Of a stretch of DNA of 64,000 nt, positions 2,312-44,467 are shown piece after piece. Origin of the DNA: a virus; the IMG/VR virus record IMGVR_UViG_3300044632_001398, positions 10,302-74,301 of that record. One strand, 5' to 3'. Each line of letters begins with the position of its first letter. Position 1 is the stretch's first letter. A program made the translations under genes and the position numbers. The notes below the pieces were generated by a model. That model did not search any database. It was not told where the DNA came from and saw only the letters and a program-made list of their open reading frames with translations.

Positions 2312-5090
2312 AAAACCGTGGTTGTTGGAATTACTTAGAGACGATAAACCTGAGTATAAAAATCCAATGGTTTCGGAAAGTACAACAATTACTATTGAGT
2401 TTAAAGTTGAGAAACTACATGAAGATAGTGATAAGATTGGTTTTATAGGTATGCCAGGTAAAAACTTTGGTATTAGTTATGATTATGAGGTTGATACCTT
2501 CGTATTTGAATATTGGACCAAAGGTAAAGATGGTAAAGATAAGTTTCATTGTTATAAAGACTTTCATATCAATCAAAATGATATTGAAAACGGAATGATA
2601 ATAACTATTCAATATGACAAAGAGAAAATGAATTTTACTTTGTTCCACAATTTTATCCCATTCTTTGAAGTAGATTTAGAATACCCATTAATAGACGATT
2701 ACACAAATCAAGCATTATTCTTTGGTGCACATAATCCAGATACTGAACAAGTAAGACATAGATGTTTTACTGAGATGGAAATGATGCATTTTAGTATTTT
2801 TAATGGTGTTGAGGATATAGATGTTGTTGAAAAATTTTATAGTAATAAGAAAAATAGAACAGATAGTTTAATTTGTTATTTTGATTTCAAGGAAAAGTAT
2901 TTGGTGTATAATAAGAACTATTCTTACAACTTAATACAACATCAAAAAATTAAGTTGGTTAAAATTATTATGGACGATTTAAACATTAGTTTATCCGATA
3001 GGATTAGATTACAGAAAAATAAATTACCAGGTTTAAAAATAGATTATAAGCAACCATATTTTTTGAGTACAGAAAATGATACTAATATTTTAATGAATAG
3101 GAGTTTTACTCTGAATAGTACATTTAAGGTTGAGAGAGAATTTCAACAAGATCAAAAAATTGGGTTTATAGGTATACCAGGTAAAAACTTTGGTATTAGT
3201 TACGATTATGAAGTAGATAAATTTGTTTTTGAATTTTGGACACAAAAGTCCGAAGAAGAATTTGAATTCCACTGTCATAAGGATTACAAATTAAATGTGA
3301 ATGATTTACATAATGGAATAACAATTTCAATTGTCTATGAAAAGAACTCACATTTTGAACTTTACCACAACTACAATTTAATTGATAGGATAGAGGTAAA
3401 AGATGACTTACTAATTGATTACGCATTTCAACCATTATATTTCGGATGTCACCATCCAAGTTCACTATTAGAAACTCACAGATGTTTTACCGAAATTGAA
3501 TTTAATCACTTTGCAGTTTATGACGGTGTTATGGATATTGTTGAGTTAGAGAAACAACCAAAAAGTGATAACTGTTTAACTTATTTTAATTTTAAGAAAA
3601 ATGATAAAAATGATAATATAAAAGATAGTTTAAATAAATTAACATCATTGAAAATTGTTGATTTAAATGACTATAAGAAAATGACTGACTATAGTATCAC
3701 TAAAGATAAATTAGATTCCGTTGGTTGTGGTTTTTGTTTAGCTAAATGGACACAAGTGACGATGCATTTACATAACGGAACAACACACTCATGTCATCAC
3801 CCTGAACCACATAAAGTTGGTTTAGATGAGATTAAAAGAAATCCAACGGCATTACATAATAGTAAACATAAGAAACAAGCAAGACGTGAAATGTTGGAAA
3901 ATAAAAGACCAACAGAATGTAACTATTGTTGGAAAGTTGAAGATAATTCTGATTCTTTTTCTGATAGAGTTTTTAAATCTTCAGAACCATGGTCAGAACC
4001 TCACTTTGATGAAATTAAAGAATCAAATTGGAGAGACGATTTTAATCCAAAATATGTTGAGGTGAATTTCTCTAATACATGTAATTTTAAATGTGCATAT
4101 TGTGGCCCTGAGTACTCCACAAAATGGATGGAAGAAGTCAAAGAGTTTGGTGCTTATCAATTATCATATGAATTTAATGGAATGAAAAGAATGGAAGATA
4201 GAGATACCGTTCCATATAAACAAACTGAAGAAAATCCATATGTTGAGGCGTTTTGGGAATGGTTTCCTGAACTATACGATAGTTTAGATACGTTCAGAAT
4301 AACGGGAGGAGAACCATTATTGTCAAAAGATACTTGGAAAGTTTTAGACCACATTATTGATAACGAAACACCAAATAGAAACCTTAAATTATCAATTAAT
4401 ACCAACTTAGGTGTTCCTGATGAATTAATTGATAAACTAATTGTTAAGTTAGATAAAATTATAAGTGAAGAGAGAGTTAAAGAGGTGGTTTTATTTACAT
4501 CTTGTGATGCGTACGGTAAACAAGCTGAGTATGTTAGATATGGTTTAGAATTTGATAGATTATTTAATAACATTGATAAGATACTTTTAACCTTACCTAA
4601 AGTAAGTATCGTTATTATGTCAACCTTCAATATCTTTAGTATATTTTCATATGAACAACTTGTTAAGAAAGTATATGAATTTAAGAAGAAACATTTCAAT
4701 CCTGATAGATATTGGAACTCAGCATTAATTTTAGACACGTCATACTTACGATATCCAGATTTCTTAGGATATAGATTATTGAAAGGTTATATCGGAGAAG
4801 AATATTTCACAAGAATTGAAAAGTTTATGAAATTCAATTCAACCTATAGAAGTTTGAATTCATATCAGGCTGAGTTACCTGAAGATGTTGGTTTTTCAAT
4901 GAAAGAAATTGAAAAAATTATAAGAATTAAGGACATATTTGTGACGGATGATATTAATTATGACAGACAAAAAGTTGATTTTGTTAACTTCATAAAACAA
5001 TATGAATTTAGACGAGGTATGAGATGTGAAGATTATCACCCCGAGTTAATTTCATTCATTAAAAAAATTAAACATGATAATAAATTATAA
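2295..5090 (+). CDS. Two tandem LamG-like domains fused to an N-terminal-twitch radical SAM enzyme
   Basis: Internal repeat (KIGFIG[MI]PGKNFGISYDYEVD.FVFE.WT twice); CLAKW..SCHH..CNYCW twitch cysteines; CNFKCAYC; ITGGEP. Confidence 0.85.
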   Translation: MLVEYKKPWLLELLRDDKPEYKNPMVSESTTITIEFKVEKLHEDSDKIGFIGMPGKNFGISYDYEVDTFVFEYWTKGKDGKDKFHCYKDFHINQNDIENGMIITIQYDKEKMNFTLFHNFIPFFEVDLEYPLIDDYTNQALFFGAHNPDTEQVRHRCFTEMEMMHFSIFNGVEDIDVVEKFYSNKKNRTDSLICYFDFKEKYLVYNKNYSYNLIQHQKIKLVKIIMDDLNISLSDRIRLQKNKLPGLKIDYKQPYFLSTENDTNILMNRSFTLNSTFKVEREFQQDQKIGFIGIPGKNFGISYDYEVDKFVFEFWTQKSEEEFEFHCHKDYKLNVNDLHNGITISIVYEKNSHFELYHNYNLIDRIEVKDDLLIDYAFQPLYFGCHHPSSLLETHRCFTEIEFNHFAVYDGVMDIVELEKQPKSDNCLTYFNFKKNDKNDNIKDSLNKLTSLKIVDLNDYKKMTDYSITKDKLDSVGCGFCLAKWTQVTMHLHNGTTHSCHHPEPHKVGLDEIKRNPTALHNSKHKKQARREMLENKRPTECNYCWKVEDNSDSFSDRVFKSSEPWSEPHFDEIKESNWRDDFNPKYVEVNFSNTCNFKCAYCGPEYSTKWMEEVKEFGAYQLSYEFNGMKRMEDRDTVPYKQTEENPYVEAFWEWFPELYDSLDTFRITGGEPLLSKDTWKVLDHIIDNETPNRNLKLSINTNLGVPDELIDKLIVKLDKIISEERVKEVVLFTSCDAYGKQAEYVRYGLEFDRLFNNIDKILLTLPKVSIVIMSTFNIFSIFSYEQLVKKVYEFKKKHFNPDRYWNSALILDTSYLRYPDFLGYRLLKGYIGEEYFTRIEKFMKFNSTYRSLNSYQAELPEDVGFSMKEIEKIIRIKDIFVTDDINYDRQKVDFVNFIKQYEFRRGMRCEDYHPELISFIKKIKHDNKL

Positions 5091-5814
5091 AGAACCTTAT
5101 TGGATGAAGTTTAGATGGGATATGTCATCTCATCACGAACATCAATATGTTACTGAGTTTAATAAATTCAATAATGATACATTGAATGAATTCTTATTTG
5201 AGAAGAATTTTATCATAACCTGTGAATTTAAAATTGAAAAGAATTTTAAAAGAGATGAAATATGTATGTTATACGGTAAACCAGGTAAAAACATGGGACT
5301 ATCATATAATTCAACTACTATGACAACTGCGTTTGAATTTTGGACCTCCACAGGTGAACCTGAAGATACATTTAATATGTGTACCTTTCAAACTGTAACA
5401 GAACAAGATATTGAAGAAGGTGTTATTTTATCGGTTGTTAGAAAGGATAATGAAATAATTCTTTATCAAAATTTTAAAAAAGTAAATAACCTTGTATTTG
5501 ACGGTGAATTTATTGAAGATTATAAAGTACCTGGTCTTTTTATAGGATGTTCAAGTCCTGAATGTGAATTTGAAAAACAAAGATATTATTGTGAAGTGGA
5601 TATGAAACATTTATCAATAATCATTAACACATCAAACATAAACGACATAAGGGAACTTTATAATGTTGATATGAATAAAATATTAACTAAAACAAGTTAT
5701 AATGATATTTTATGTTTATATGACTTTGAAAGCGTTAATAATCTTGGGATTATTTATGATGAATCAAAAAACACTAATTTTTTAGAGAAAGTACCTAAAG
5801 AATTCGTAAAGTGA
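5074..5814 (+). CDS. Stand-alone LamG-like domain protein, paralog of the repeats in 2295..5090
   Basis: YKEPY..FKIEK..GKPGKNMGLSY..FEFWT..LFIGC..YDF motifs match those repeats. Confidence 0.7.
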   Translation: MIINYKEPYWMKFRWDMSSHHEHQYVTEFNKFNNDTLNEFLFEKNFIITCEFKIEKNFKRDEICMLYGKPGKNMGLSYNSTTMTTAFEFWTSTGEPEDTFNMCTFQTVTEQDIEEGVILSVVRKDNEIILYQNFKKVNNLVFDGEFIEDYKVPGLFIGCSSPECEFEKQRYYCEVDMKHLSIIINTSNINDIRELYNVDMNKILTKTSYNDILCLYDFESVNNLGIIYDESKNTNFLEKVPKEFVK

Positions 5815-5848
5815 TAAAAATTAATTATATTATATTAAATAACAAAAT

Positions 5849-7300
5849 ATGTCAGAAGAACTAAGTAATTGGAGAGATAAAAATTTAAATTCGGTAAGTT
5901 GTAGTTTTTGTGCGGCTAAGTGGTTGAACGTAAGTTTACATTTAGGTCATGGTTTCACAAACTCATGTCACTTACCATTACCACATCCTATTGATGTTGA
6001 AGAGATTAAAACAAATCCCGCCGCATTACACAATACACAATTTAAGAAAGAAATAAGAAAAATGATGTTGGAAGGTGTTAAACCTGCCGAATGTAACTAT
6101 TGTTGGAAAATGGAGGACATCGGTAGAAATAATATATCTGACCGTGTATTCAAAAGTATTATTTATTCAGAAGAAGAAATTGCAAAATTAAAAGACTTAC
6201 CATGGGATGCTGATATCACACCAAGAACAATTGAGGTAAGTTTTGATAGAACATGTAATTTTGCTTGTTCATACTGTAATTCAGGTTATTCAACAACGTG
6301 GGGTAAGGATATTAAAAACAACGGAGCGTATCAAAACTTTAAAACACAAAGTGCCGGAGCATATTACGCTGACGGGTCTTGGTCTGAAGTTTATGGTAAG
6401 TACAATGAGAATAATCCATATGTTGATGCATTCTTAAAATGGTGGCCTGAATTGTCAAAAACTTTGATGGAAATACGTGTTACTGGTGGAGAACCATCAC
6501 AAAGTATGAACTTTTGGCAATTTATGGATGTTGTAAAACAAAATCCATCACCTAATTTACGTCTTGCGGTCAATTCTAACCTAGGTCTTAATGAAACGAC
6601 TGTGAATAGGTTAATTAATATATCTCACGAATTAGATATCAAAGAATTTGATTTGTACACATCTAACGAATCTTATGGTGAACATGCTGAATATATTAGA
6701 GATGGTTTAAAATATGATTTATGGAGAGCTAATTTAGTTAGAGTTATTGAAGAGGCTAAAATTAGACAAGTTGTTATTATGATGACAATTAATAGTTTAT
6801 GTTTATTCAGTATTACGGAGTTTTTAGATGATATGTTAAAGTTAAAGAAACAATATGGTGCAAATAAACCTGTTGTTGATTTTAACATATTAAGATGGCC
6901 AGCATTTATGTCTCCATTAACATTACCTGATGATATCAAAAGAGAATTACACGGTAAGTTATCAATATGGTACAGAAGACATAAAAATAATCCATTATTA
7001 AATCAAAACGAGAAGGCACAAATTCAAAGGTTAATTGATTATATTGAAGTGGTTAATAGAGGTCACGTTACAACTGAAACCGATATTGATTTACAATTCC
7101 ACGACTTTAAGAGTTTTTATGTTCAGTACGATATTCGTAGAAATAAGTCGTTTGTTGACACTTTCCCTGAATTAGCGGATTGGTTTAACTCAATAGAAAT
7201 TGACCCGAATATACCCCACGTAAATGTCACTGATGGTAGAATTACACACTTTGAACCGGGTGTTTATGTTTCAGATAATTATAATAAAATAGAAGAATAA
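5849..7300 (+). CDS. N-terminal-twitch radical SAM enzyme (paralog of the rSAM domain of 2295..5090)
   Basis: CAAKW..SCH..CNYCW; CNFACSYC; VTGGEP. Confidence 0.9.
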   Translation: MSEELSNWRDKNLNSVSCSFCAAKWLNVSLHLGHGFTNSCHLPLPHPIDVEEIKTNPAALHNTQFKKEIRKMMLEGVKPAECNYCWKMEDIGRNNISDRVFKSIIYSEEEIAKLKDLPWDADITPRTIEVSFDRTCNFACSYCNSGYSTTWGKDIKNNGAYQNFKTQSAGAYYADGSWSEVYGKYNENNPYVDAFLKWWPELSKTLMEIRVTGGEPSQSMNFWQFMDVVKQNPSPNLRLAVNSNLGLNETTVNRLINISHELDIKEFDLYTSNESYGEHAEYIRDGLKYDLWRANLVRVIEEAKIRQVVIMMTINSLCLFSITEFLDDMLKLKKQYGANKPVVDFNILRWPAFMSPLTLPDDIKRELHGKLSIWYRRHKNNPLLNQNEKAQIQRLIDYIEVVNRGHVTTETDIDLQFHDFKSFYVQYDIRRNKSFVDTFPELADWFNSIEIDPNIPHVNVTDGRITHFEPGVYVSDNYNKIEE

Positions 7301-9971: not shown

Positions 9972-10519
9972 TATGATTCGTAATATAACTCAGGATATTC
10001 AACTATAACATGAATACCACCTAAAGAATATGCTGACTTATATATTGTTTCAATTTCATTGTAATTTTTTAAATCCCAAAATTTAGTATTAGGACACATG
10101 GATTTGAATTCATCAAAATAGTTTCCTCTATGTTGATGACCAGGGTCTAACGGTTTATCTGAACCTTTACCTAAACGAATAATCATATTAGGTGTCCATT
10201 CACCCTTACTCATTAAACCAATTTTGTCCACGTGGTTAACTAACTGATTTGTTGCACATATTACAAAATCCCAACGAGGGTAGAATGTAATAACAAATTT
10301 ACCGGCCATTGCCATACCTAATGACATACCCATTTGAGATTCTTCCATAACGGGAAGTTCAATTAATTTATCTTTAGGAACGTCTCCAATGGTTGTACTC
10401 ATAGGATTACCGTGCCAAAGGACTTGTTGACCTATAAAAACGGTGTTTTCTTGTTGCCCAAGGTAAGTCATTGAATTAGTCAATGCGTCCTTATATGGGG
10501 TGTATTGTGGTGAACTCAT
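9971..10519 (-). CDS. TPP enzyme beta subunit, pyrimidine-binding domain only (E1-beta/transketolase-like)
   Basis: IGQQV, ELPVMEESQMGMSLGMAMAG, NQLVNH, PGHQH; lacks the C-terminal domain. Confidence 0.8.
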   Translation of the reverse strand: MSSPQYTPYKDALTNSMTYLGQQENTVFIGQQVLWHGNPMSTTIGDVPKDKLIELPVMEESQMGMSLGMAMAGKFVITFYPRWDFVICATNQLVNHVDKIGLMSKGEWTPNMIIRLGKGSDKPLDPGHQHRGNYFDEFKSMCPNTKFWDLKNYNEIETIYKSAYSLGGIHVIVEYPELYYES

Positions 10520-27725: not shown

Positions 27726-29393
27726 ATGTATATAATAGGAATTTCAGCACTGTACCACGATTCATCTGTATGTTTATTCAGAGATAACCAATTAATATTT
27801 GCATGTGAAGAGGAGAAGTTTACAGGTATTAAACATGATAATTCCTTTCCTGAAGAAGCCCTGAAATATATATACAAACAATACAAATTAACACCAAAAA
27901 ATGTACAGGCAGTTTGTTATTATGAAGACCCTAAATTAAAATATAAAAGGGTGATGGATAACATCAAACCTCAATGGTTGAAGAACCCAATTTATTCTTT
28001 GAAATCTTATTTAAAAATTAAAAAGAACGTTAAAGAAATTGATGAAAGATTAAGAAAAATATCACAAAATGTATTTTACTCAACACATCATGAGGCACAT
28101 CTTTATTATTCCTATTATACTTCATCTTTTGATGAAGCGACTTGTTTATCAATTGATGGTGTTGGTGAGATAGATACACTTTCTTTGGGTTACGCTGACT
28201 ATAAAGGTATCAAATACGAACCATTAGCTGAGTACCCACATTCAATGGGTTTATTTTATTCAGCAATGACTTCTTTCTTAGGGTTTAGACCAAACGAGGG
28301 TGAGTATAAGATGATGGGGTTAGCTCCTTATGGTGATTATAAAGTTCATATAAAAAACGCAAGGAAACTAATGAATTTTACTGATGGAAAATTAACTTGT
28401 AATTTGGATGTATTTTGTTGGCATAAAACCGATAAAACTATGTTCAATGAAAAATTACCAGAACTATTATCGGTATCACAAAGATTACCTGAAGAAGAAA
28501 TAACACAAGACCATAAAGATTTAGCAGCTTCAATACAAAGAGTTTATGAAGAGGTATTGTTTGATGTGATGAAACACGTTAAAAAGAAAACTAAAAACAA
28601 AAATTTATGTTTAGGTGGTGGTTGCGCTTATAATGGTACCGCAAATGGTAAGATAGTAGAAAAAACACATTTTGAACATTTGTGGATACCACCTGCACCT
28701 TCTGATGCGGGATCTGCAATAGGTGCTGTTGTTCATTATTTAGTGAAAGAAAGAAAAGTAAGAAGTAAAATCACAAGAAACCCATTCTTGGGACCACAAT
28801 ATTATTACGATGATATTAAAAAAGTAATTACACCGTATCACTACAAAAAATTTGAGTCAGAACGAAAATTAAAAGAATTTATTGCTCTTAGATTAAATGA
28901 AGGTAAAGTCGTTGGTTGGTATCAAGGACATATTGAGTTCGGTTCAAGAGCATTGGGTAATAGATCAATATTAGCAAACCCAACATTCCCTGACATGAAA
29001 GATAAAATTAATCGTGTTATTAAGAAAAGAGAAGGATTTAGACCTTTCGCACCTATGGTTATTAAAGACGAACAACACACATATTTTGATATGGTAGATG
29101 ACGTTCCTTATATGAACCAAGTGGTTAAGGTTAAAGAAGAATATAAAGATAAATTACCGGCGGTTACTCACGTTGATGGTAGTGCTAGAGTCCAAACTGT
29201 ATATAAACATACCTTAATTTACGATTTACTATTAGAATTTAAAAAACTTAGTGGTTACCCAATTCTTTTGAATACGTCGTTTAACGTAAAAGATAAAACA
29301 ATGGTACTAACACCAAAAGATGCGGTGGAAACATACTTTGATACTGAGATGGATATTTTAGTTATGGGTAATTATGTAATGTATAAAAAATAA
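27726..29393 (+). CDS. O-carbamoyltransferase (NodU/CmcH family)
   Basis: YHDSS, EEEKF..KH, HHEAH, DGVGE, EGEYKMMGLAPYG, GGCAYN, EFGSRALGNRSILA, RPFAP, HVDGSARVQTV, LNTSFN. Confidence 0.95.
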   Translation: MYIIGISALYHDSSVCLFRDNQLIFACEEEKFTGIKHDNSFPEEALKYIYKQYKLTPKNVQAVCYYEDPKLKYKRVMDNIKPQWLKNPIYSLKSYLKIKKNVKEIDERLRKISQNVFYSTHHEAHLYYSYYTSSFDEATCLSIDGVGEIDTLSLGYADYKGIKYEPLAEYPHSMGLFYSAMTSFLGFRPNEGEYKMMGLAPYGDYKVHIKNARKLMNFTDGKLTCNLDVFCWHKTDKTMFNEKLPELLSVSQRLPEEEITQDHKDLAASIQRVYEEVLFDVMKHVKKKTKNKNLCLGGGCAYNGTANGKIVEKTHFEHLWIPPAPSDAGSAIGAVVHYLVKERKVRSKITRNPFLGPQYYYDDIKKVITPYHYKKFESERKLKEFIALRLNEGKVVGWYQGHIEFGSRALGNRSILANPTFPDMKDKINRVIKKREGFRPFAPMVIKDEQHTYFDMVDDVPYMNQVVKVKEEYKDKLPAVTHVDGSARVQTVYKHTLIYDLLLEFKKLSGYPILLNTSFNVKDKTMVLTPKDAVETYFDTEMDILVMGNYVMYKK

Positions 29394-29398
29394 AAATT

Positions 29399-29515
29399 AT
29401 GAAAAAATTAATCAATTGGGTAAAGAAATACTTTGCCGATAAGAAAAGAAAGAAGGAATTTAAAAAGAAATTAGAAGAATTACGTAAAAGAGATCCATTT
29501 ATTTACAATCATTAA
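29399..29515 (+). CDS. 38-aa basic peptide ending RDPFIYNH (absent from ORF track)
   Basis: Manual translation MKKLINWVKKYFADKKRKKEFKKKLEELRKRDPFIYNH, 5 nt after the carbamoyltransferase stop. Confidence 0.65.
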   Translation: MKKLINWVKKYFADKKRKKEFKKKLEELRKRDPFIYNH

Positions 29516-29549
29516 TTTGTTTTTTGAAATTCTTTTTGTATATTAAAGT

Positions 29550-29987
29550 ATGATATATTGGTTAACAGGACAACCTGCGGCAGGTAAAACAACATTGGCA
29601 ACTTGGATTCAATCAAGTTTCCCTAATAAGTCTATAATTGTGGATGGTGATGATATTAGAGAGATATTCGTAAATAAAGACTATTCAGAGGAAGGAAGGA
29701 AGAAAAACATTGAAAAGGCTCAGATTTTGGCTAAGTTCCTTCATCATAAGGGTTATATTGTTATAGTATCGTTAGTTTCACCATACAGAGATCAAAGGGA
29801 AGAGTTTAAAAACGAAATGGGGGAAAACCTAAGGGAAATCTATGTACATACCACCCAAGATAGAGGACGTAATCATTTTCACGTTGAGGGGTATGAACCA
29901 CCTTTGGAAAACTATTTTGACTGCGACACTACCGATAGTAGTGAATATCACACATTTTTAGAATTAAGAAGAAAATTAAATATATAA
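29550..29987 (+). CDS. cysC: Adenylyl-sulfate (APS) kinase, compact
   Basis: WLTGQPAAGKTT, DGDDIRE, DYSEEGR..N, VSLVSPY, YEPP. Confidence 0.8.
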   Translation: MIYWLTGQPAAGKTTLATWIQSSFPNKSIIVDGDDIREIFVNKDYSEEGRKKNIEKAQILAKFLHHKGYIVIVSLVSPYRDQREEFKNEMGENLREIYVHTTQDRGRNHFHVEGYEPPLENYFDCDTTDSSEYHTFLELRRKLNI

Positions 29988-29990
29988 TAT

Positions 29991-30353
29991 ATGAGTAAGA
30001 AATATGCGATGTATGTGGGTCGTTGGCAAAATTGGCATAAGGGTCACGAATGGTTAATTAACCAACAATTAGAAAAGGGTAAAGATGTGTGGGTAGCAAT
30101 TAGAAATGTTCCAACTGATGAAAATAACCCTAAAACTGCTCAAGAAGTGATGATGGAATTAGCGGGAGAACCGTTTTTTATGGAAAATTCACATAGAATT
30201 AACATATCTATTATACCGGACATTGAAAGTATAAATTATGGTCGTGGAGTGGGTTATGATGTTATTTATCATGAACCACCACCTGAGGTAGAAGTAATAA
30301 GTGGAACTAAAATCCGTAATGGGGAAATGAATTCAGATGGTAGTAGAGCGTAA
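29991..30353 (+). CDS. HxGH nucleotidyltransferase (cytidylyltransferase-like; candidate minimal ATP sulfurylase)
   Basis: GRWQNWHKGH, YGRGVGY, ISGTKIR. Confidence 0.7.
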   Translation: MSKKYAMYVGRWQNWHKGHEWLINQQLEKGKDVWVAIRNVPTDENNPKTAQEVMMELAGEPFFMENSHRINISIIPDIESINYGRGVGYDVIYHEPPPEVEVISGTKIRNGEMNSDGSRA

Positions 30354-30552
30354 ACGACATATAGCTAAAACCATTTCATATCGTATTGTAAGTACCCTAA
30401 TTGGGTTCATTATAATGTGGTGGGTAAGTGGATCGATTAAGGTTGGGGCGGCATTTGGGGTAGCGGAATTGATATATAAACCCATTCAATACTATCTACA
30501 CGAAAGAATTTGGTATAAATGGATAAAATTTGGACTAAAAGATAAAAAATAA
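30337..30552 (+). CDS. DUF2061-like small membrane protein
   Basis: RHIAKTISYR..YYLHERIW..I.FG. Confidence 0.8.
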   Translation: MVVERKRHIAKTISYRIVSTLIGFIIMWWVSGSIKVGAAFGVAELIYKPIQYYLHERIWYKWIKFGLKDKK

Positions 30553-30561
30553 GTATTTATA
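30552..30561 (+). promoter_or_regulatory. Putative late promoter AGTATTTATA
   Basis: The same 10-mer recurs at 43213-43222 and 44509-44518 upstream of virion-type genes. Confidence 0.5.
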
Positions 30562-30579: not shown

Positions 30580-32028
30580 ATGAAATCAGTATTAATTGCA
30601 AGTGATTTAATCAAAGATTTAAATGGTAATATAAAAGTAATTGAAACGAACACAAACGCGTCAGTATCTATAAATTGGAATTTATATGATTTTGCAAATT
30701 TGCAAGATTTTATCCAATCTAATAATTTTACAGAAGTTAATGGTATCGTTCCTCAAGTGGATAAACCATTTTCGGCTAAAATAAAAGAAATATGTGATTC
30801 AATTGGGATAACCTACGTTGAACATATAACAGTTAATGGTTCGATAACCGTTCCATTTATTGAAGATAATGAATCTACATTAATTATTAGACTTTCATAT
30901 GACACCACTGCAGTAGTGGACGACCAATATTGTAGAGACAAATTTGCATTACAAAAAGTAATTCACAATGAATCATTTGGTGTAAAAACATATATTCCGG
31001 TAGAAGTGGATGGAGTTACAATAGATGATTTTACCGAAATGGAAGACTTTGTTTATACTAACGACATACCAAATTTTATTGTAAAAAGTAGATATCCAAA
31101 TTATGATAAAGAAGTATATCCAAAGTTATACAAAGTAGAAAATTTAACACAATTAAATGAATTAAAATCTACAATTGAATCGGATTATTATTTACAAGAA
31201 TTTATTCAATCGGAATTAATAGATGGTAGAAGAAACATTATTAGAAGTTTAGATTTATTATATGGTTCTAATTTGGATACATTAAATATAGGTGGTTATA
31301 CTGTTTTAAACCAAATTGAAGAAACAATATGGAATAATACATGGGATGAGAATAATATGTTGGCCAAAAAAGATAGGCCAAAATATATAACACATACGGC
31401 AGGACATGACGATTCTTCACATGAATATGTTTATGATGTTGATCAGGATGTTGCAATGATGGATGGTAGTAGAAAAACATTTTATTCATTAATATTAGGT
31501 GATTCAATTAAATCATTACACATTCAAGGATTGGACTTAGATGAAAGTACATATCAATTACAATCATGGACTGGTACTTATTCGGATTTTATTGAAAATT
31601 TCAGTATTATATCCTCAGCTGTTGTTGCTACCAGAGAATCTCAACCCGTATCTCAATTATTTATTAAAATAACAATGGATGATGGAACTGAGTGGGATGA
31701 TGTAAAACTTTCACCATTATTGGTTAAGGATGGTGATGTTATTAAATTTAAAAGAGTAAATGATATGGCTATTGGTGATGTTATTATCACATATAATTTT
31801 GAATCATCGGAAGTAGAATTAAAAACCATTCAAAATATGGAAATTATATTTAAAGAAAACCAAATATTGGGTTCTTTAGATGTTGAACCGGTGGATTTGT
31901 ATCTACCTTTTGTATCTGCAAATTCAACAGTAATTCAACACAATCGATGCACCAAGGGATGTGCAAGTAATGCCTGTTTCGATTCTTTTGCATGTGGTAA
32001 TTGTAGTTTTTACGTTTGTAATAAATAA
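30580..32028 (+). CDS. Circularly permuted ATP-grasp-like domain + Hint domain + 27-aa Cys-rich C-terminal peptide
   Basis: SD..KD.NG.IKVIETNT near the N-terminus, FIVKSRYP, YLQEFI; Hint-like blocks VAMMDGSRK..LILGD, ITMDDG, NDMAIGD, LDVEP..IQHN; then RCTKGCASNACFDSFACGNCSFYVCNK. Confidence 0.7.
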   Translation: MKSVLIASDLIKDLNGNIKVIETNTNASVSINWNLYDFANLQDFIQSNNFTEVNGIVPQVDKPFSAKIKEICDSIGITYVEHITVNGSITVPFIEDNESTLIIRLSYDTTAVVDDQYCRDKFALQKVIHNESFGVKTYIPVEVDGVTIDDFTEMEDFVYTNDIPNFIVKSRYPNYDKEVYPKLYKVENLTQLNELKSTIESDYYLQEFIQSELIDGRRNIIRSLDLLYGSNLDTLNIGGYTVLNQIEETIWNNTWDENNMLAKKDRPKYITHTAGHDDSSHEYVYDVDQDVAMMDGSRKTFYSLILGDSIKSLHIQGLDLDESTYQLQSWTGTYSDFIENFSIISSAVVATRESQPVSQLFIKITMDDGTEWDDVKLSPLLVKDGDVIKFKRVNDMAIGDVIITYNFESSEVELKTIQNMEIIFKENQILGSLDVEPVDLYLPFVSANSTVIQHNRCTKGCASNACFDSFACGNCSFYVCNK

Positions 32029-32050: not shown

Positions 32051-32164
32051 ATGGCACTTTTAGATAAAGAACAAATAGAATTAACAGTTGCAACAAAATT
32101 GCAAATTTCATCAGTTATTACAAGTATGGTAACTCTTATTAAGAGTGATATATTAAGTTCATAA
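32051..32164 (+). CDS. 37-aa Ser/Thr-rich peptide (absent from ORF track)
   Basis: MALLDKEQIELTVATKLQISSVITSMVTLIKSDILSS, with an A-rich leader; fills the gap after the Hint fusion. Confidence 0.6.
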   Translation: MALLDKEQIELTVATKLQISSVITSMVTLIKSDILSS

Positions 32165-32204: not shown

Positions 32205-32504
32205 ATGCCAATAGACGTAAAAGAAATTACCAAAGCTTGGATAGATTCTTACTTTGGAACAATCGAACAAAAAAACAGAGCAAACGATAGAAATGAAATC
32301 TGTCAACAATGCCCATCTTTAAAAGAATTTTTTAAACAACGCAAAAACATTTCCGTTCAACAATGTGGTGAATGTGGGTGTCCTATTTCTAAAAAAATAT
32401 GGTCATATAAATTTAATCCTTGCCCATTAGGTAAATGGGAAGATGTTGATAAAAAACACAAAAATCTATTTGATACTGAATTGAAAACTAAAAATACGAT
32501 TTAA
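32205..32504 (+). CDS. Small Cys-cluster (metal-binding) protein, DUF6171-like
   Basis: R..ICQQCP..CGECGC..K..CPLGKW. Confidence 0.7.
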   Translation: MPIDVKEITKAWIDSYFGTIEQKNRANDRNEICQQCPSLKEFFKQRKNISVQQCGECGCPISKKIWSYKFNPCPLGKWEDVDKKHKNLFDTELKTKNTI

Positions 32505-32870
32505 ATGAATGTTATAAATACAAACCCAAAACTATATATTAAATACATCGATAATATAAAGGGATTTGGTGTTTTTACTAATCAAAAAATTAAAAAGGGT
32601 GAATTAATTGAACAATGTTATTCCCTTTGTATTGATACTACGGTTAAAGGGTTTGATGCATATTGGTTTAGGTATAGAGGAGATAGTACATTGTTACCAC
32701 TTGGATTTGGTACGATTTATAATCATAGTAATACTCCAAATACTATATGGAAAATTATTGATGAAAACAAAAGAATTATAAACTTTTATGCAATTGATGA
32801 TATTGATATAGATTGTGAACTTTGTCATAATTACGGACCAGGGTATTTAAAACATATCCAATTAATATGA
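32505..32870 (+). CDS. SET-domain lysine methyltransferase
   Basis: KGFGVF..IKKGELI, IYNHSNTPN, A..DI..ELCHNYG. Confidence 0.85.
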   Translation: MNVINTNPKLYIKYIDNIKGFGVFTNQKIKKGELIEQCYSLCIDTTVKGFDAYWFRYRGDSTLLPLGFGTIYNHSNTPNTIWKIIDENKRIINFYAIDDIDIDCELCHNYGPGYLKHIQLI

Positions 32871-33400
32871 TTTATCAAAAAAAAATATTTTCTAAAGAGG
32901 AATGTGATATAATATTACAATTATCTGACACATTGGAATTTAGAGATGGAAAAACTAGATATAGTAAAGATAATATGCATGCCGACTTTGATGAATACTG
33001 GGTTTCGGATAATGAAAATGCTATATGGTTTATGGATAGAATAAAAGTGTTTGCCGAAAAAGAATTAAAAGTAAAATTAAAAAAGTTAAAATCCGATGTT
33101 GCAATTCTAAAATATAAAGAAGGACAGGGTATTGATATGCATATAGATTATAATCCCAAAAATGTGGATGTTAGAATGTATACTGTTGGTGTAATGCTGA
33201 ATACCGAATGGGAAGGAGGTGAATTTTTTATAAAGGATGTATCTAATGGAGAAGAAACGATGCTAATCAAAGAAATAGGAAATACATATATTTTTGATGC
33301 ATTTTCTCCTCATATAGTTAATAAAGTAACAAAGGGAGTAAGATGTGTATTGATTACTCATATATTAAATTCAGAAATTAAAAAAACAGATTTAATATGA
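32867..33400 (+). CDS. 2OG-Fe(II) oxygenase (P4H-like)
   Basis: FSKEEC, KY..G..HID, LN..EGGEF, H.V..V..G.R. Confidence 0.85.
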   Translation: MIYQKKIFSKEECDIILQLSDTLEFRDGKTRYSKDNMHADFDEYWVSDNENAIWFMDRIKVFAEKELKVKLKKLKSDVAILKYKEGQGIDMHIDYNPKNVDVRMYTVGVMLNTEWEGGEFFIKDVSNGEETMLIKEIGNTYIFDAFSPHIVNKVTKGVRCVLITHILNSEIKKTDLI

Positions 33401-33984
33401 TTTATCAAGAAAAAATATTTTCTAAAGAGGAATGTGAAAGAATATTATCATATACCAACATATATACTGATTTAGTGTTTAGAAGTAAAGAACCAAATAT
33501 TGATTTTGAAAAAAGAAGGGTAGAGCATATTACAAAACACACTAATGGTAAAAATATCGGAAAATTTTTTAATGTTTGGGATATTCGTCATGATGAAGAA
33601 ACACATTGGATGTTTGAAAAAATAATAAAATGGTTTTCTAATGTTTCAAAAATAGAACACAATTCAGATGGGTGGCCTGGCGGTTGTTCATTACATAAAT
33701 ACTCAAAGGGGGACTCATTTCAAAAACATATAGATTTAAATCAATCTTTCCCAGATAGAAGATGGAATTTAGGTATTCAATTAAACGACTCATATACTGG
33801 TGGTGAATATATATGTTATGATAATAACGATAATAAGATAATATTAAGTAAAGAAATTGGAACAGCAATAGCTTATAATTCTACAACTGAACATGAAATA
33901 ACGGAAATATTATCTGGTGAAAGGTGGTCTATTGTAATGCCAATAAGTAATAAAGTAATTTTAGAAAAAAAATCAATAATATGA
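33397..33984 (+). CDS. 2OG-Fe(II) oxygenase (P4H-like)
   Basis: FSKEEC, KY.KGD.F.KHID, LN..YTGGE, HEI..GERWS. Confidence 0.85.
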   Translation: MIYQEKIFSKEECERILSYTNIYTDLVFRSKEPNIDFEKRRVEHITKHTNGKNIGKFFNVWDIRHDEETHWMFEKIIKWFSNVSKIEHNSDGWPGGCSLHKYSKGDSFQKHIDLNQSFPDRRWNLGIQLNDSYTGGEYICYDNNDNKIILSKEIGTAIAYNSTTEHEITEILSGERWSIVMPISNKVILEKKSII

Positions 33985-34604
33985 TTTTAGAAAAAATAGA
34001 AATAGATAAAAATATTATTGTATATAAAGGAATAGTTGGTTTATTTGAATCCTTTAATAGAGAAGAATTTATTAAAAAAATAAAATATATTCAACATTTA
34101 TATCCGGATTTTACTAATTCTATGAATGAAAAATCACCTGGTAAACAATATCCAATTTTAGTAAATTTAGAAGAGACTAATTTTATTATTAATAAAGTAA
34201 AAACATCATTAAAAAATGAAATAAATACTCCAAGTGAATGTGTTATAAACAGTTGGGTTTATGTTAGTAGTAATAAAAATAAATATTCAGGATATCATTC
34301 ACATGAAAGTACAGGAGTACATCAAAATAATAAAACCGTTATGTTTGATACATCACACACATTCACATATTATGTTCAAATGCCAAATAATTTAAAAAAT
34401 GATGATGGATATTTATACTTTAAAACAAAAGATGGTACGGAATTTGGATTTTTACCAAAAGAAGATGAGGTTTGGATATTCCCAGGAGATTTAGAACATG
34501 ATGTTAAAACCAATACATCATCTACAAATGAAAGAATTGTAATTGCAAGTAATATGCATTTTTTTGATTATAATGATATTAAATTAGAAAAAAGTATATT
34601 ATAA
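33981..34604 (+). CDS. Putative 2OG-Fe(II) oxygenase (HxH type)
   Basis: SWV..YHSH..YYVQMP..G.L.F..IFPGDLEH..ERI.IA.N. Confidence 0.75.
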   Translation: MILEKIEIDKNIIVYKGIVGLFESFNREEFIKKIKYIQHLYPDFTNSMNEKSPGKQYPILVNLEETNFIINKVKTSLKNEINTPSECVINSWVYVSSNKNKYSGYHSHESTGVHQNNKTVMFDTSHTFTYYVQMPNNLKNDDGYLYFKTKDGTEFGFLPKEDEVWIFPGDLEHDVKTNTSSTNERIVIASNMHFFDYNDIKLEKSIL

Positions 34605-35323
34605 TGTCTATTTTAATAAATAATAACTTAATATGGGTATCTATACCAAGAAATGCAAGTCATTCTATTGAAAAGGCTATTGTAAATTCGGATGTAGAGA
34701 TAAAACATTGGAATAGATTGTATACAACAGAAAGTATTTTTAATAGAAATTGGTTGCATCAACATGTAAATAAAAACCAATTACAAATTGCATTTGGTAA
34801 TAAAGAAACGTTTTGTATAAAAAGAGATTTCAGTAATAGATGGATATCTTCACTGGAACACTTTTGGGATGTGTGTATTAAACACCACAAATTAACTCCT
34901 ATTATTAACTATGAAGACATAGATAATGATTTTATATACAATACTTTTAATACTACATTCAGTAATATTTTATATAATGATAATACGGGATTAATAAAAT
35001 GTACATCAATGTTAGTAAAACAATCTATGGAAGATGTATTAAATAATAATACTAGGTATGAGACTCAAAGACTTTCACACATTTTTGCATCACAAAATAA
35101 ATATTTAGATGGGGAAAAATGTACATATGAATTTGACATAAAAGAATTGGATAAATTTAAAACATTTTATGAAAATAGATATGATGTAAAAATAGATATA
35201 CCTCATGAAAATGTATCACCAAAAAAAATAAATAAAATAATATTAGATGATGATTTAAAAAATCATTTATGGGAAGTGTTTGAAAAACCATTTGCAAAAG
35301 ATAAAAAATATAATTTATTATAA
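34604..35323 (+). CDS. Sulfotransferase family 2-like protein
   Basis: WVSIPRNASHS (5'-PSB), H, KRD..RWISS (3'-PB), SQ..Y, H.N.S. Confidence 0.7.
   Translation: MSILINNNLIWVSIPRNASHSIEKAIVNSDVEIKHWNRLYTTESIFNRNWLHQHVNKNQLQIAFGNKETFCIKRDFSNRWISSLEHFWDVCIKHHKLTPIINYEDIDNDFIYNTFNTTFSNILYNDNTGLIKCTSMLVKQSMEDVLNNNTRYETQRLSHIFASQNKYLDGEKCTYEFDIKELDKFKTFYENRYDVKIDIPHENVSPKKINKIILDDDLKNHLWEVFEKPFAKDKKYNLL
35255..35311 (+). repeat. 57-bp direct repeat, copy 1 (copy 2 at 36574-36630)
   Basis: TTAAAAAATCATTTATGGGAAGT[G/A]TTTGAAAAACCATTTGCAAAAGATAAAAAATAT, 1 mismatch. Confidence 0.9.
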
Positions 35324-35352
35324 TACCCCCACCAACAACACAACTAAAATAA

Positions 35353-35925
35353 ATGTTATTTAATAATTTTTACAAAACAACCTACGATTTTAATTGGGAA
35401 GTATTAGAACCCATTTTAGAAAAAATGGTCAGTATAAAAAATCAAGACTATTTAGAAAAGGGTGATGTATTAACTTCTTTTAAAAATAAAATAAGTCCAT
35501 TAAATTTACCTGAACTTAAAGACTTTTATAGTTTTATATCACCAATTTATAGTGATGTATTAATTAATAAATGGAACTATCCAAAAGAAAATGAATATTT
35601 TATTAGTAATTCTTGGGTATCAAAATATGGAAATGGTGGTTTTATTGAAGAACACAATCATACCAACGTAATTGCAGTAATATGTGCATATTTACAAATT
35701 CCTGAAAATTCATCAAATATTTTATTTAGAGATCCAAATTATGATACAAAAATAAAATTATCAACAAAGGATGATAATTGGTTATGGAAAGAAATAGAAT
35801 CCAAAACAAACGAAATACTTATATTTGAAGGTGGGTGTTATCATAAAACTAATCCAAATAATAGTTTAATTCCTCGTTGGGTATTAACTACAAATATAAC
35901 AAAAAAAAATAAAAGTATAATATGA
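35353..35925 (+). CDS. Putative 2OG-Fe(II) oxygenase (TIGR02466-like)
   Basis: SWVSKY..GG..HNH..YL..P..FRDP..IF..H.T.PN..R..N. Confidence 0.8.
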   Translation: MLFNNFYKTTYDFNWEVLEPILEKMVSIKNQDYLEKGDVLTSFKNKISPLNLPELKDFYSFISPIYSDVLINKWNYPKENEYFISNSWVSKYGNGGFIEEHNHTNVIAVICAYLQIPENSSNILFRDPNYDTKIKLSTKDDNWLWKEIESKTNEILIFEGGCYHKTNPNNSLIPRWVLTTNITKKNKSII

Positions 35926-35947
35926 AATTAAACAAAATAAACACACT

Positions 35948-36571
35948 ATGAAAGGGAATGAACAAATAGAGGTTTTTGAAGAAAAAATTGAAATTCAAAA
36001 TACAAAAAACGATGGTAACAATGTCATTATGCACATTGGTGAAAAATATTTAATGACTAAACTTGCAGAAATTGTTACAAAAAACGGAGGTGACATATTA
36101 GAAATTGGATTTGGAATGCATTTATCTGCCGATGCTATACAATCAAATCCAAATGTGACATCACATACCATAATAGAAATTCATCCGGTTCAATATGAAA
36201 GAGCATTAGAATGGGCAAAGTTACAAAAAATAAAAACAACAGTTATATTAGGTGATTGGATTGAATTATTACCATTGACTAATATGAAGTTTGATGGAGT
36301 ATTACATGATACACATTTAGACCCGAATATACCTAAATTTTTAGATTATATAGTAGATAATTGTAAAAAAGGTACAATTGTGGGTTTTTTTGAATATCAA
36401 AAATTTGATTTAAGATTTAATGGATATAGAGTTACTATACCAAAAGAAGACTGGGAAACTATTCCATATAAAAATAACATATATTACAAAGATAATCAGC
36501 CTGAATTAAAATATACTACATTTAATGGTGATGATTTTTATAGTGAAAAAAAAATAAATAAACTATTATGA
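35948..36571 (+). CDS. Class I SAM methyltransferase, GAMT/Rmt2-like
   Basis: E..LM..LA..V..GGDILEIGFGM..S..I..HTIIE.HP..GDW..FDG..DT. Confidence 0.8.
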   Translation: MKGNEQIEVFEEKIEIQNTKNDGNNVIMHIGEKYLMTKLAEIVTKNGGDILEIGFGMHLSADAIQSNPNVTSHTIIEIHPVQYERALEWAKLQKIKTTVILGDWIELLPLTNMKFDGVLHDTHLDPNIPKFLDYIVDNCKKGTIVGFFEYQKFDLRFNGYRVTIPKEDWETIPYKNNIYYKDNQPELKYTTFNGDDFYSEKKINKLL

Positions 36572-36639
36572 TTTTAAAAAATCATTTATGGGAAGTATTT
36601 GAAAAACCATTTGCAAAAGATAAAAAATATTTAATTTAA
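36568..36639 (+). pseudogene. Minigene or deletion remnant carrying the C-terminus of a sulfotransferase paralog
   Basis: MILKNHLWEVFEKPFAKDKKYLI versus the end of 34604..35323 (LKNHLWEVFEKPFAKDKKYNLL). Confidence 0.65.
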
Positions 36640-36640
36640 A

Positions 36641-37207
36641 ATGGTAATCACTATTATCGCAGAACCAAGAACTGGGTCAACTAATTTAGGTAAATGGTTT
36701 CTGAACAATAAAGAATTCACAGTATTATTTGAACCATTAAATAAAACTAGTACAAATTATAAAAAAGGTGAATCAGTTTATCAATGGAAATATAATACTA
36801 ATCATTTTTTAATTAAGGAAATATATACACCAGATATATGTTTAACAGAATTGATACAATTTTCAGATAAAATCATAATACTTTATAGAGAAAATAAAAA
36901 AGAACAATTGGAATCTTGGTTAGTTGCCAGAGAAACCAATAATTGGCATGTAAAATGGAGTCATAATATGACAAGTGTGACAAATGGTAAAGAAAAAATA
37001 AAATATTTTAATTCACTAACAAATACATTCAAATTAAATTATATAAATAATCCTAATTATTTTAAAATTTCATATGAAGAATTATATTATAGTAATGGAT
37101 TTCAAAAAATAATAGATTATATAAATTTAGATTGTGTAAAAAATGAAAATTTTCCACAAGGTCAAAAATATAGAATATATGATAGTAAAACAACAAGTAT
37201 TATTTAG
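36641..37207 (+). CDS. Sulfotransferase-like P-loop protein
   Basis: IIAEPRTGST, FEP, LYREN..EQLES, ISYEELY. Confidence 0.75.
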   Translation: MVITIIAEPRTGSTNLGKWFLNNKEFTVLFEPLNKTSTNYKKGESVYQWKYNTNHFLIKEIYTPDICLTELIQFSDKIIILYRENKKEQLESWLVARETNNWHVKWSHNMTSVTNGKEKIKYFNSLTNTFKLNYINNPNYFKISYEELYYSNGFQKIIDYINLDCVKNENFPQGQKYRIYDSKTTSII

Positions 37208-43243: not shown

Positions 43244-44467
43244 ATGAATATATTTGATCCATTTGTCTCAGGTAATCTCTCCGTATCAGGTTCGGTAAAT
43301 ATATCGGGCTCAATGACAGTAGGAGGAACGATTAACGCCACTATTAGTGGTACGACATCAGAAGCACTAAACTCACAAAAATTAAATAACCAAGAGTCGT
43401 CCTATTACGCTATTACGGGAAGTAACTTATTTAAGGCGAACCAAACAATTAGTGGTTCGATAATCCCCGCCGTTACTAATGCTTACGATTTGGGTGACGC
43501 AACACATTGGTGGAAGGACATCTACGTATCAACAGGGTCCATCTTCATTGGTGGAATTAAAGCTATCAGTACAAACTCCGATGGTACAATACAAGTAGGT
43601 ACTCAAGTTGTACAAACTTCAGCGAGTTTGGCTTTAGTAGGTCTTCCAGTTCCTCCAACAGGTTCTGCAGGATCAAGTCAAAGTACATTAGTAGGTAGTC
43701 AAAATATTACAGGTAGTCAAGCCATCACAGGTAGCATGTCTGTTAGTGGTAGTATGGTTGTAACTGGTTCATTGTTCATTAATGGAACATCATATACCGC
43801 AGCAACATCAGGAACATCTGGTTCTTCAGGTACTTCAGGTTCTAGTGGTTCATCAGGTACTTCAGGTTCTAGTGGTTCATCAGGTACTTCAGGTTCTAGT
43901 GGTTCATCAGGTACTTCAGGTTCTAGTGGTTCAAGTGGAACATCTGGTTCTTCAGGATCATCTGGTTCTTCAGGATCATCTGGTACAACAACGGTAACAA
44001 ATGCGTCCGCTGATCGTGTAATGACAAGTGAAGGTGGAGTAACTATAAATGGTGAGGCAAACTTAACATTTAACGGAACAACTTTATATGTAAACGGAGC
44101 GTTAGGTGTAGGAACATCAACACCAACAACAACAGGTTTGATTAGAGCAACAAACGACGTTATTGCTTATTTTTCATCTGATGAAAGATTAAAAGAAAAT
44201 TTTGAACCAATTGTAAATTCTTTAGAAAAACTACAACAAATTAATGGTTATAGTTTTGATTGGGTTCCTATGGAAGGTATTCACGAAAATGAAGGTCACG
44301 ATATCGGTGTTAAAGCACAAGAAATTGAGGCTGTTTTACCTGAATTAGTTACAACAAGAGATAATGGTTATAAAGCCGTGAAGTATGAAAAATTAGTAGC
44401 TTTATTGATTGAAACAAATAAAGAATTATTAAAGAGAGTTGAAGCTTTAGAATCTAAAATAAAATAG
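43244..44467 (+). CDS. Tail fibre/spike protein with Gly-Ser/Thr-Ser repeat and C-terminal S74 intramolecular chaperone
   Basis: SGS-rich beta repeats, YDLG..W..IY, (SG[TS])n tract, YFSSDERLKEN..W..G..AQE..PELV..Y..L coiled coil. Confidence 0.85.
   Translation: MNIFDPFVSGNLSVSGSVNISGSMTVGGTINATISGTTSEALNSQKLNNQESSYYAITGSNLFKANQTISGSIIPAVTNAYDLGDATHWWKDIYVSTGSIFIGGIKAISTNSDGTIQVGTQVVQTSASLALVGLPVPPTGSAGSSQSTLVGSQNITGSQAITGSMSVSGSMVVTGSLFINGTSYTAATSGTSGSSGTSGSSGSSGTSGSSGSSGTSGSSGSSGTSGSSGSSGTSGSSGSSGSSGSSGTTTVTNASADRVMTSEGGVTINGEANLTFNGTTLYVNGALGVGTSTPTTTGLIRATNDVIAYFSSDERLKENFEPIVNSLEKLQQINGYSFDWVPMEGIHENEGHDIGVKAQEIEAVLPELVTTRDNGYKAVKYEKLVALLIETNKELLKRVEALESKIK
43826..43933 (+). repeat. Four perfect 27-bp tandem repeats (SGTSGSSGS)
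   Basis: TCAGGTACTTCAGGTTCTAGTGGTTCA x4, flanked by degenerate units. Confidence 0.95.

Follow-up and report, generated by a model that had tools for sequence, protein, structure and literature searches.

Organisation of the fusion gene

The window examined here, a 64-kb stretch of viral DNA (64,000 nt; positions 10,302 to 74,301 of IMG/VR record IMGVR_UViG_3300044632_001398), contains an open reading frame (ORF) of 482 aa on the + strand (30580-32028) that encodes a fusion of three parts: an ATP-grasp ligase domain, a degenerate Hint domain and a short Cys-rich tail, referred to below as the cargo. A preliminary description, made from the letters of the DNA, had recognised the three parts and treated the architecture as one not known from a described system. 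In the literature searched, no description of an ATP-grasp, Hint and Cys-rich peptide layout was found, the nearest papers being general ones on inteins and from the Aravind laboratory. The component parts are of known kinds; the fusion, its constant partner gene and the cassette of genes with a shared C-terminal tag were not found described. Comparison of loci indicates that the fusion gene does not stand alone, having a constant partner (C99), forming the hub of the tag-sharing enzyme cassette, and carrying upstream a promoter-like motif that it has in common with virion genes.

Homologs of the protein number 252 by a word-indexed search, and 269 cluster representatives at 50% identity were recovered by an exhaustive search. 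Residues D9, E22, N24, T25, R104, Y107, A111, D114, Y117, P164 and N165 are invariant or nearly so across the family, as are K169, R222, H454 and N455. The number of relatives and these near-invariant motif residues show that the three-part ORF is not a chance open frame. Every source annotates the family as hypothetical protein. The sequence of the fusion protein gave no match in Pfam, PHROGs or the PDB sequences, and with Pfam expect (E) values up to 1 the sole hit was a chance one to GDSL.

An AlphaFold2 (AF2) model of the full-length protein, built on a 150-sequence alignment, has a predicted local distance difference test (pLDDT) score of 90.9 and a predicted template modelling (pTM) score of 0.87, with only residues 459-482 disordered. 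A structure search of BFVD returned matches to the Hint domain only, and no viral model spanning both domains.

The ATP-grasp ligase domain

Residues 1-280 (30580-31419, + strand) correspond to a minimal circularly permuted ATP-grasp amide-ligase domain. AF2, structural comparison with VIA and Foldseek agree on this assignment, which is the one originally proposed for residues 1-270 (glutathionylspermidine synthase type). Folded alone, the domain has a pLDDT of 91.7. Against 48,161 PDB representative chains, the top 11 VIA matches all belong to the clade of glutathione synthetase (GS), glutathionylspermidine synthase (GspS) and YgiC (Z 7.2-10.2, residues 1-272), the best being YgiC (7uka, Z 10.2) and then GspS (2io7, Z 9.6). 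The others among the top 11 include eukaryotic glutathione and homoglutathione synthetases, trypanothione synthetase and Cp1B. Foldseek with the same residues gave E values down to 1.3e-6. Classical ATP-grasps (TTLL, ArgX/LysX, RimK, Ddl) reach Z 5-6.8 and align only from about residue 50, as would be predicted for a circular permutation that places the E-x-N strand (E22, N24) at the N-terminal end.

The motifs K19-x2-E22-x-N24-T25 at the extreme N-terminus, IVK (167-169) and LQEFI (205-209) can be read directly in the protein. The N-terminal motif had been written as D-x8-K-x2-E-x-N-T; the motif is present, but the distance from D9 to K19 makes its first part D-x9-K. At the sequence level the Pfam models GSP_synth, GSH_synth_ATP and CP_ATPgrasp did not match the fusion protein, and a profile search of the PDB sequences gave, for the ligase part, only a non-significant match to the E-x-N region of biotin carboxylase (E about 1.4).

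The domain shares with GspS, YgiC, YjfC, eukaryotic GS and Cp1B the permuted order, with the Mg-binding E-x-N strand placed first. It has conserved Lys, Arg and Glu motifs of its own, in which the invariant E22, N24, K169 and R222 are candidates for the metal- and ATP-binding residues. It differs from them in its length (280 aa, compared with 370-600 aa), in having no detectable sequence similarity, and in being fused to a Hint domain. Because of its small size, much of the lid and of the substrate-binding parts is missing from the phage ligase. Enzymes of the GspS/YgiC clade phosphorylate the carboxylate of a peptide or acid and couple it to an amine, and GS and GspS activate a C-terminal carboxylate. 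YgiC and YjfC, the nearest solved relatives, are reported to ligate peptide C-termini to spermidine (Pederick 2023, as cited in PMC12568646). By analogy, the phage domain would join a C-terminal carboxylate to an amine, the partners suggested for it being discussed below.

Residues E22, N24, T25, R104, K169 and R222 are kept in every class of cargo found in the family, the cargo-less and second-Hint forms among them. This retention of motif residues, even where cargo is lacking, suggests that the ligase is probably active and does not depend wholly on the tail. A short linker follows (residues 281-283; 31420-31428, + strand), at which pLDDT dips to 68-74 around residues 271-290. Its last residue, Y283, directly before the Hint domain, is the commonest one at that position in the family.

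The Hint domain and predicted cut site

Residues 284-455 (31429-31944, + strand) form a degenerate Hint domain, which from AF2, VIA, Foldseek and a family profile appears to retain the apparatus for C-terminal cleavage only. Compared by VIA with solved Hint domains, residues 280-458 align over about 140 residues with Z 16-17 and a root-mean-square deviation (rmsd) of 2.0-2.1 A, the matches including Tetrahymena BIL2, Hedgehog, and the DnaB and RecA mini-inteins. Foldseek matches to Hint folds have E values of 2e-8 to 1e-6, and the family profile finds the KlbA intein by sequence (E 1.2e-7). In the structural register V284 corresponds to intein residue 1 and N455 to the terminal Asn, showing that the boundaries first drawn for the domain are exact.

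The preliminary description had also noted that Cys1 and the block-B His are missing and that the terminal His-Asn is intact, and here the alignment and the structural register concur. Hint position 1 is V284 in the query and H, I, V, K, L or G in the family, with no Cys, Ser or Thr nucleophile. Residues 284-455 are devoid of Cys and the family has no conserved Cys. The His of the block-B T-x-x-H motif is absent, there being no common His in columns 375-381 and Ser/Thr or Leu at the aligned position. The +1 residue is R456 here and A, P, L, V, Y or I in the family, so that the nucleophile of the splicing type is missing at this position. By established intein chemistry, the missing position-1, block-B and +1 groups exclude class 1, 2 and 3 splicing as well as N-terminal cleavage, and the complete lack of Cys in the query domain in itself rules out class-3 chemistry. 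What remains, as far as can be read from the residues present, is probably only Asn cyclisation at the C-terminal end of the Hint domain.

The predicted scissile end is His454-Asn455 (31939-31944, + strand), with the cut expected after N455, as indicated by conservation and by the structural register. If this pair is a cut site, then it might be expected to be conserved among homologs that carry cargo and to decay in those that do not. H454 is found in 143 of 150 sequences and N455 in 148 of 150, down to about 25% identity, so that the conservation of HN looked for at the outset is borne out. Where the cargo is of the Cys-rich, Hint2 or S74 kind, 99-100% of members retain the pair. Members with long cargo keep the His in 88% and the Asn in 100% of cases, and among the almost cargo-less members (n=7) the figures are 42% and 71%. 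This pattern across the cargo classes, with HN kept where there is cargo and decaying where there is none, fits a site maintained for cutting.

Cargo and its replacement among relatives

The cargo of the query (residues 456-482; 31945-32025, + strand) is 27 aa long, has six Cys in the arrangement C-x3-C-x4-C-x5-C-x2-C-x4-C, and ends in Lys; the translation agrees with the initial account of it. Throughout the family, constant sequence gives way to variable sequence exactly at the end of HN, all that lies beyond the Asn being variable. Cargos of the query clade are 27-35 aa in length and follow the framework C-x3/4-C-x3-10-C-x5-C-x2-C-x4-C, usually with Lys as the last residue. The non-Cys positions of the tail are 59% identical when the ATP-grasp domains are 80-90% identical, and 19% identical when these are 50-60% identical, with the six Cys kept, so the loops of the tail diverge about three times faster than the enzyme. 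A hypervariable Cys-rich tail had been anticipated. The tail is indeed Cys-rich and fast-evolving, but its six-Cys framework is fixed and only the loops vary.

Other clades have different Cys frameworks, 21-70 aa long. Of 150 sequences, 15 have beyond the Cys-rich segment a second Hint domain, which possesses Cys1 and HN, and 8 have a Peptidase_S74 self-cleaving chaperone domain there. Further members have tails of 100-1242 aa, some with BACON domains. Across the aligned sequences, then, the cargo in other clades is a large domain or is nearly absent, with the ligase intact, and the original picture of a single small peptide needs widening. In the second-Hint and S74 relatives the Cys-rich segment is bracketed on both sides by self-cutting sites, which suggests that the segment is a released product; these flanking domains are the best comparative evidence for release.

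Taken with the ligase domain, these features suggest the reading favoured here, which is given about an even chance of being correct: cyclisation of Asn455 would free the six-Cys peptide, and the fused ligase would make an ATP-dependent amide bond involving the freed peptide.

The same features can be read as a system in which no cleavage occurs, the Hint-like domain being structural or substrate-binding, the tail a permanent zinc-binding end, and the ligase acting on a small molecule or virion protein. In the reducing cytoplasm, six Cys with a C-x2-C pair among them could act as metal ligands, and the neighbourhood is rich in enzymes for small molecules and glycans. This proposal is nevertheless very unlikely: HN at the exact end of the Hint domain is kept in nearly all sequences (143/150 and 148/150) and decays once cargo is lost, the variable region begins exactly past the Asn, and relatives add self-cleaving domains after the cargo. 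Such patterns of conservation and cargo are those expected of a cut site, not of a fixed zinc finger.

A second alternative accepts cleavage and separates it from the ligase. In pretoxin-Hint (PT-HINT, PF07591) polymorphic toxins, a constant N-terminal part and a Hint domain precede variable cargo that is released by autoproteolysis, and the order in the phage family (constant N-terminus, Hint, variable cassette) copies this arrangement. The ATP-grasp and Hint domains might accordingly be the constant carrier of a polymorphic effector, freed by the Hint domain at lysis, with the ligase having a job of its own; candidates for such an effector are a binding domain and a disulfide-rich peptide with an antimicrobial, anti-grazer or signalling role. 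The range of cargo, from Cys peptides of 21 aa to BACON-bearing tails of 1242 aa, agrees with this, and extracellular toxins and defensins typically combine fast loops with a Cys framework that stays fixed. The ligase is also kept in cargo-less forms, and a promoter-like motif common to late and virion genes (see below) would fit release at lysis. Set against these points, the ligase and Hint domains are never found apart in about 270 cluster representatives, which is hard to square with independent action, the tails have neither a signal peptide nor a known toxin domain in the domain scans, and C99 and the tag cassette are left with no role. An effector of this kind therefore seems unlikely. 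The family differs from PT-HINT proteins in having an enzyme as its constant part in place of a secretion or filament domain, in its cargo, mostly a Cys-rich peptide of 20-70 aa and not a toxin domain, and in its occurrence in lytic T4-like phages with no immunity gene. The Pretoxin-Hint model PF07591 did not match the fusion protein, and found only the extra downstream Hint domains of the relatives P0113 and P0231.

The partner protein C99 and the C-terminal tag

Downstream of the fusion gene lies the gene for C99 (32205-32504, + strand), a six-Cys protein of 99 aa that comparison of loci identifies as a constant partner. It occurs in 70 of 81 loci, adjoining the fusion gene on either side or a few genes away. 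Eleven positions of C99 are invariant (W12, R29, C33, C36, C54, C57, C59, K64, C73, K77 and W78), among them the six Cys. The C-terminal part consists of a variable Lys-rich linker followed by a conserved K-[ST]-[IL]-[IL] end. Clusters related to C99 are found in viruses only. A predicted complex of the fusion protein with C99 scored 0.11 against a mark of 0.32, and is counted neither for nor against an interaction.

The end of C99 conforms to a more general C-terminal tag, K-x(0-3)-[ILMVF][ILMV], with which the eight consecutive genes after C99 also end (32505-37207, + strand). Their products are a SET domain protein, four 2-oxoglutarate (2OG)-Fe(II) oxygenases, a methyltransferase and two proteins without a family match. 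Fifteen of the 71 ORFs of the window end in this way; the chance frequency is 2.3% per internal position. In 61 distinct relatives, 74-81% of the genes at -1, +1 and +2 relative to the fusion gene bear the tag, and ten genes away its frequency is down to 10-30%. In a complete genome of 238 kb the tag clusters round the fusion gene, and close-packed genes elsewhere carry it in 8% of cases. Among the tagged proteins are 2OG-Fe(II) oxygenases, a SET protein, methyltransferases, sulfotransferase-like and radical-SAM-like proteins, whereas no fusion protein bears the tag.

The tag is commoner where genes overlap (61%, compared with 26% at gaps of more than 30 nt), and it was considered whether it is a mere by-product of gene overlap or of ribosome-binding sites. 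This was partly rejected, as the tag is specific to the cassette and persists in 26% of cases at gaps of more than 30 nt. The Ser at position -3 is encoded by both AGT and TCN codons, and several Leu and Ile codons are used. Cassette specificity and this codon usage indicate that the tag is a motif at the protein level. In its K-[ST]-[LI]-[IL] form it is compatible, too, with the pattern of class I PDZ ligands, [ST]-x-hydrophobic-COOH.

C99 adjoins the fusion homolog in the very distant locus L094 as well. At 7708-9908 of L094, the gene for a C99 homolog with KKTSLV as its last residues overlaps the beginning of the gene for a fusion homolog of 634 aa, and only C99 bears the tag.

The arrangement invites comparison with the LysW system, in which the gene beside that of an ATP-grasp ligase likewise encodes a small protein with a Cys cluster and a conserved C-terminus. 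LysW has an acidic EDWGE motif at its C-terminus, whereas C99 ends in K-[ST]-[IL]-[IL], and LysX and ArgX are classical RimK-type enzymes, not permuted ones. On this model the ligase would couple the K-[ST]-[LI]-[IL]-COOH ends of C99 and of the cassette enzymes to an amine, whether freed by the Hint domain or of another origin. Either C99 would act like LysW, the amino-group carrier of the ATP-grasps LysX and ArgX, or the Cys peptide would become a C-terminal appendage on a set of enzymes. Enzymes of the GS/GspS/YgiC clade activate C-terminal carboxylates, the protein-level tag is centred on the fusion gene in the 61 relatives and in the complete 238-kb genome, and C99 alone is tagged in the most distant relative. 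C99 is moreover small, has a Cys cluster and a flexible Lys-rich linker before its tag, and ArgX-LysW and LysX-LysW complexes are among the structural matches (Z 6.0-6.2). The tag would, however, suit a class I PDZ-type ligand or a degradation signal too, and its greater frequency at gene overlaps means that part of the signal perhaps reflects gene packing. This broader reading, tagging or carriage centred on the shared tag, is rated improbable.

A promoter-like motif upstream of the fusion gene

The sequence TATTTATA is read in the window 18 nt before the start codon of the fusion gene (30554-30561, + strand). In 45 of 56 distinct loci it occurs no more than 60 nt before the fusion homolog, for the most part at about 20-35 nt. 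The T4 late promoter TATAAATA was rejected as the upstream element and TATTTATA preferred, since TATAAATA is upstream in only 5 of the 56 loci. In the complete relative G003, TATTTATA precedes 21 of 268 genes, at about 20-30 nt from the start codons, and 16 of these genes lie in a block at 140-235 kb. Several genes of this block have tail-fibre, virion-protein or adaptor matches, and those with the motif are mostly large structural genes. The motif is promoter-like by position and recurrence, and is probably a late-promoter element of this phage group. Since it otherwise marks mainly the structural-gene block, late expression of the fusion gene is suggested.

Source virus and distribution of the family

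The parent IMG/VR record is 74.3 kb long, with a CheckV completeness of 22%. Among related virus records, complete ones of 288 kb (with terminal repeats) and 238 kb have a gene for a capsid protein of the T4 gp23 type, and T4 gp23 scores above the family cut-off in three of five related records. The exact DNA of the window recurs across lake-water metagenomes from 2018 to 2024. The gp23-type capsids of the relatives and the recurrence in lake metagenomes indicate that the source is an uncultured T4-like jumbo phage of fresh water. The name GVMAG of one related record led to a giant-virus origin being considered and rejected; three records have gp23. A nucleocytoplasmic large DNA virus (NCLDV) capsid model had no match in the five related records, a result to be read with the fact that its control was also silent.

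A tblastn search with the fusion protein and C99 against 50,697 phage records, from which the window's own or near-identical genomes were possibly excluded, gave no match, and by these searches the family would have no relative among cultured phages. A scan of one genome each of 185,579 prokaryote species gave a single match, L094, a phage-like contig of 93 kb binned in an Anaeromicropila metagenome-assembled genome (MAG). Its fusion homolog is only 31% identical to the query and has a 180-aa tail with no richness in Cys; the upstream genes include a radical-SAM-like one.

Short contigs from three lake RNA libraries match the locus at 99% identity or above and cover only parts of the fusion gene; carry-over of DNA into these libraries is possible, and gaps in the contig cover are uninformative.

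Proposed mechanism and comparison with known systems

The favoured reading, release of the six-Cys peptide and ligation by the fused enzyme, can be set out as a series of steps. In the folded chain Asn455 would cyclise and the N455-R456 bond would break, freeing the 27-aa peptide with a new alpha-amine, with no splicing or N-terminal cleavage by the Hint domain. The ligase would then phosphorylate a C-terminal carboxylate and couple it to an amine. The bond most likely to be formed would join the N-terminal amine of the freed peptide to a C-terminal carboxylate, for which the K-[ST]-[IL]-[IL]-COOH end of C99 is the best candidate. Cyclisation, with the C-terminus of the peptide itself as the carboxylate, or the use of a polyamine for the amine would be less likely. 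The tagged oxygenases and transferases may tailor the peptide, or dock by way of the same tag.

Several points weigh against this scheme. Cargo-less members keep an intact ligase, so its own tail would not be strictly needed. Relatives with a second, thioester-forming Hint domain also keep the ligase, and in these an ATP-dependent activation of the tail carboxylate would not obviously be required. Many of the tagged enzymes could equally serve to modify glycans or virion proteins, because the window is rich in glycosyltransferases and has a gene for a collagen-like fibre. The +1 Pro present in some members could slow Asn cyclisation. Finally, the AF2 pLDDT is below 50 in the tail, which has no confident position in the model.

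A fuller version of the scheme is offered tentatively and is on balance doubtful. It envisages a new kind of viral peptide system in one chain, in which the Hint domain exposes the alpha-amine, the ligase uses ATP to join the peptide to the C-terminus of C99 or of the tagged enzymes, and the tag is the address that gathers the enzymes. The outcome would be a six-Cys mini-protein, modified and produced late in infection, and destined for the virion surface or to be set free at lysis.

The closest structural relative of the Hint domain is a bacterial intein-like (BIL) domain, Tetrahymena BUBL BIL2 (PDB 6Y75), which has the same fold and is the best structural match (Z 16.8, rmsd 2.1 A). BIL domains, like the phage domain as interpreted here, are non-splicing Hints that process flanking polypeptides, but they keep Cys1 and the thioester route, where the phage domain has Val1, no Cys and no block-B His. 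Fusion of a BIL domain to an ATP-grasp ligase is not known. The Hint domains of BUBL lie on both sides of a small ubiquitin-like protein, which they release and conjugate without E1, E2 or E3 (PMC8616854). Phage relatives with a second Hint domain show the same Hint-cargo-Hint order around the Cys-rich segment.

Graspetides are similar in that the genes for an ATP-grasp and for tailoring enzymes lie next to that of a ribosomal peptide whose core varies, and the graspetide ligase 7mgv is a weak structural match to the phage ligase domain (Z 5.0). They differ in that the phage leader would be a 455-aa enzyme and self-cutting domain in the same chain, that the phage ligase comes from another ATP-grasp clade, and that the core is rich in Cys and not in Ser, Thr, Lys, Asp or Glu. 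The locus does have ingredients like those of ribosomally synthesised and post-translationally modified peptides (RiPPs), namely a variable core-like tail with 2OG oxygenases, methyltransferases, sulfotransferase-like and radical SAM proteins nearby, for which other substrates are possible.

The layout may represent a new viral route to make or attach a small peptide. If the Hint domain cuts and the ligase works on the freed peptide or on the shared tag, this would be a ribosomal peptide whose leader is its own ligase and single-turnover protease, a new biosynthetic logic, and it would offer a compact natural module of about 450 aa for ATP-driven ligation of peptides or proteins, possibly of use in protein engineering. 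A short C-terminal address common to unrelated enzymes would likewise be new. A function would also be provided for this family, which comprises several hundred sequence clusters and is frequent among the T4-like jumbo phages of fresh water.

Small ORFs and neighbouring genes

Between the fusion gene and C99 lies a small ORF of 37 aa (32051-32164, + strand) that is colinear in the close clade and covered by RNA-library contigs. It is kept as a protein in the same gap at eight loci (L002-L004 and L006-L010), at which the fusion proteins are 47-60% identical. A different small ORF, of about 49 aa, occupies this gap in L077 and L081.

On the far side of C99, a contig from one RNA library (run X23, 95-99% identity) joins position 32504 to 32867, exactly skipping the SET-domain gene, which suggests that this gene is absent from a related strain.

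Directly upstream of the fusion gene, the region 27726-30552 encodes a carbamoyltransferase, an adenosine 5'-phosphosulfate (APS)-kinase-like protein, a 120-aa HxGH nucleotidyltransferase-like protein and a DUF2061 protein. This block is found, whole or in part, in L068, L077 and L078, and without the carbamoyltransferase in L045, L046 and L059. It may be a module supplying 3'-phosphoadenosine 5'-phosphosulfate (PAPS) for the sulfotransferase-like genes.

Further downstream, the gene at 43244-44467 has collagen triple-helix repeats and a Peptidase_S74 chaperone domain, and probably encodes a fibre. The many nearby 2OG oxygenases resembling prolyl 4-hydroxylase (P4H) could have this collagen-like fibre, and not the Cys peptide, as the substrate that they hydroxylate. 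Many relatives have in their cassette a tagged radical-SAM-like gene of about 354 aa, and in the window two radical SAM domain proteins, of 931 and 483 aa, are encoded about 25 kb upstream of the fusion gene (2295-7300).

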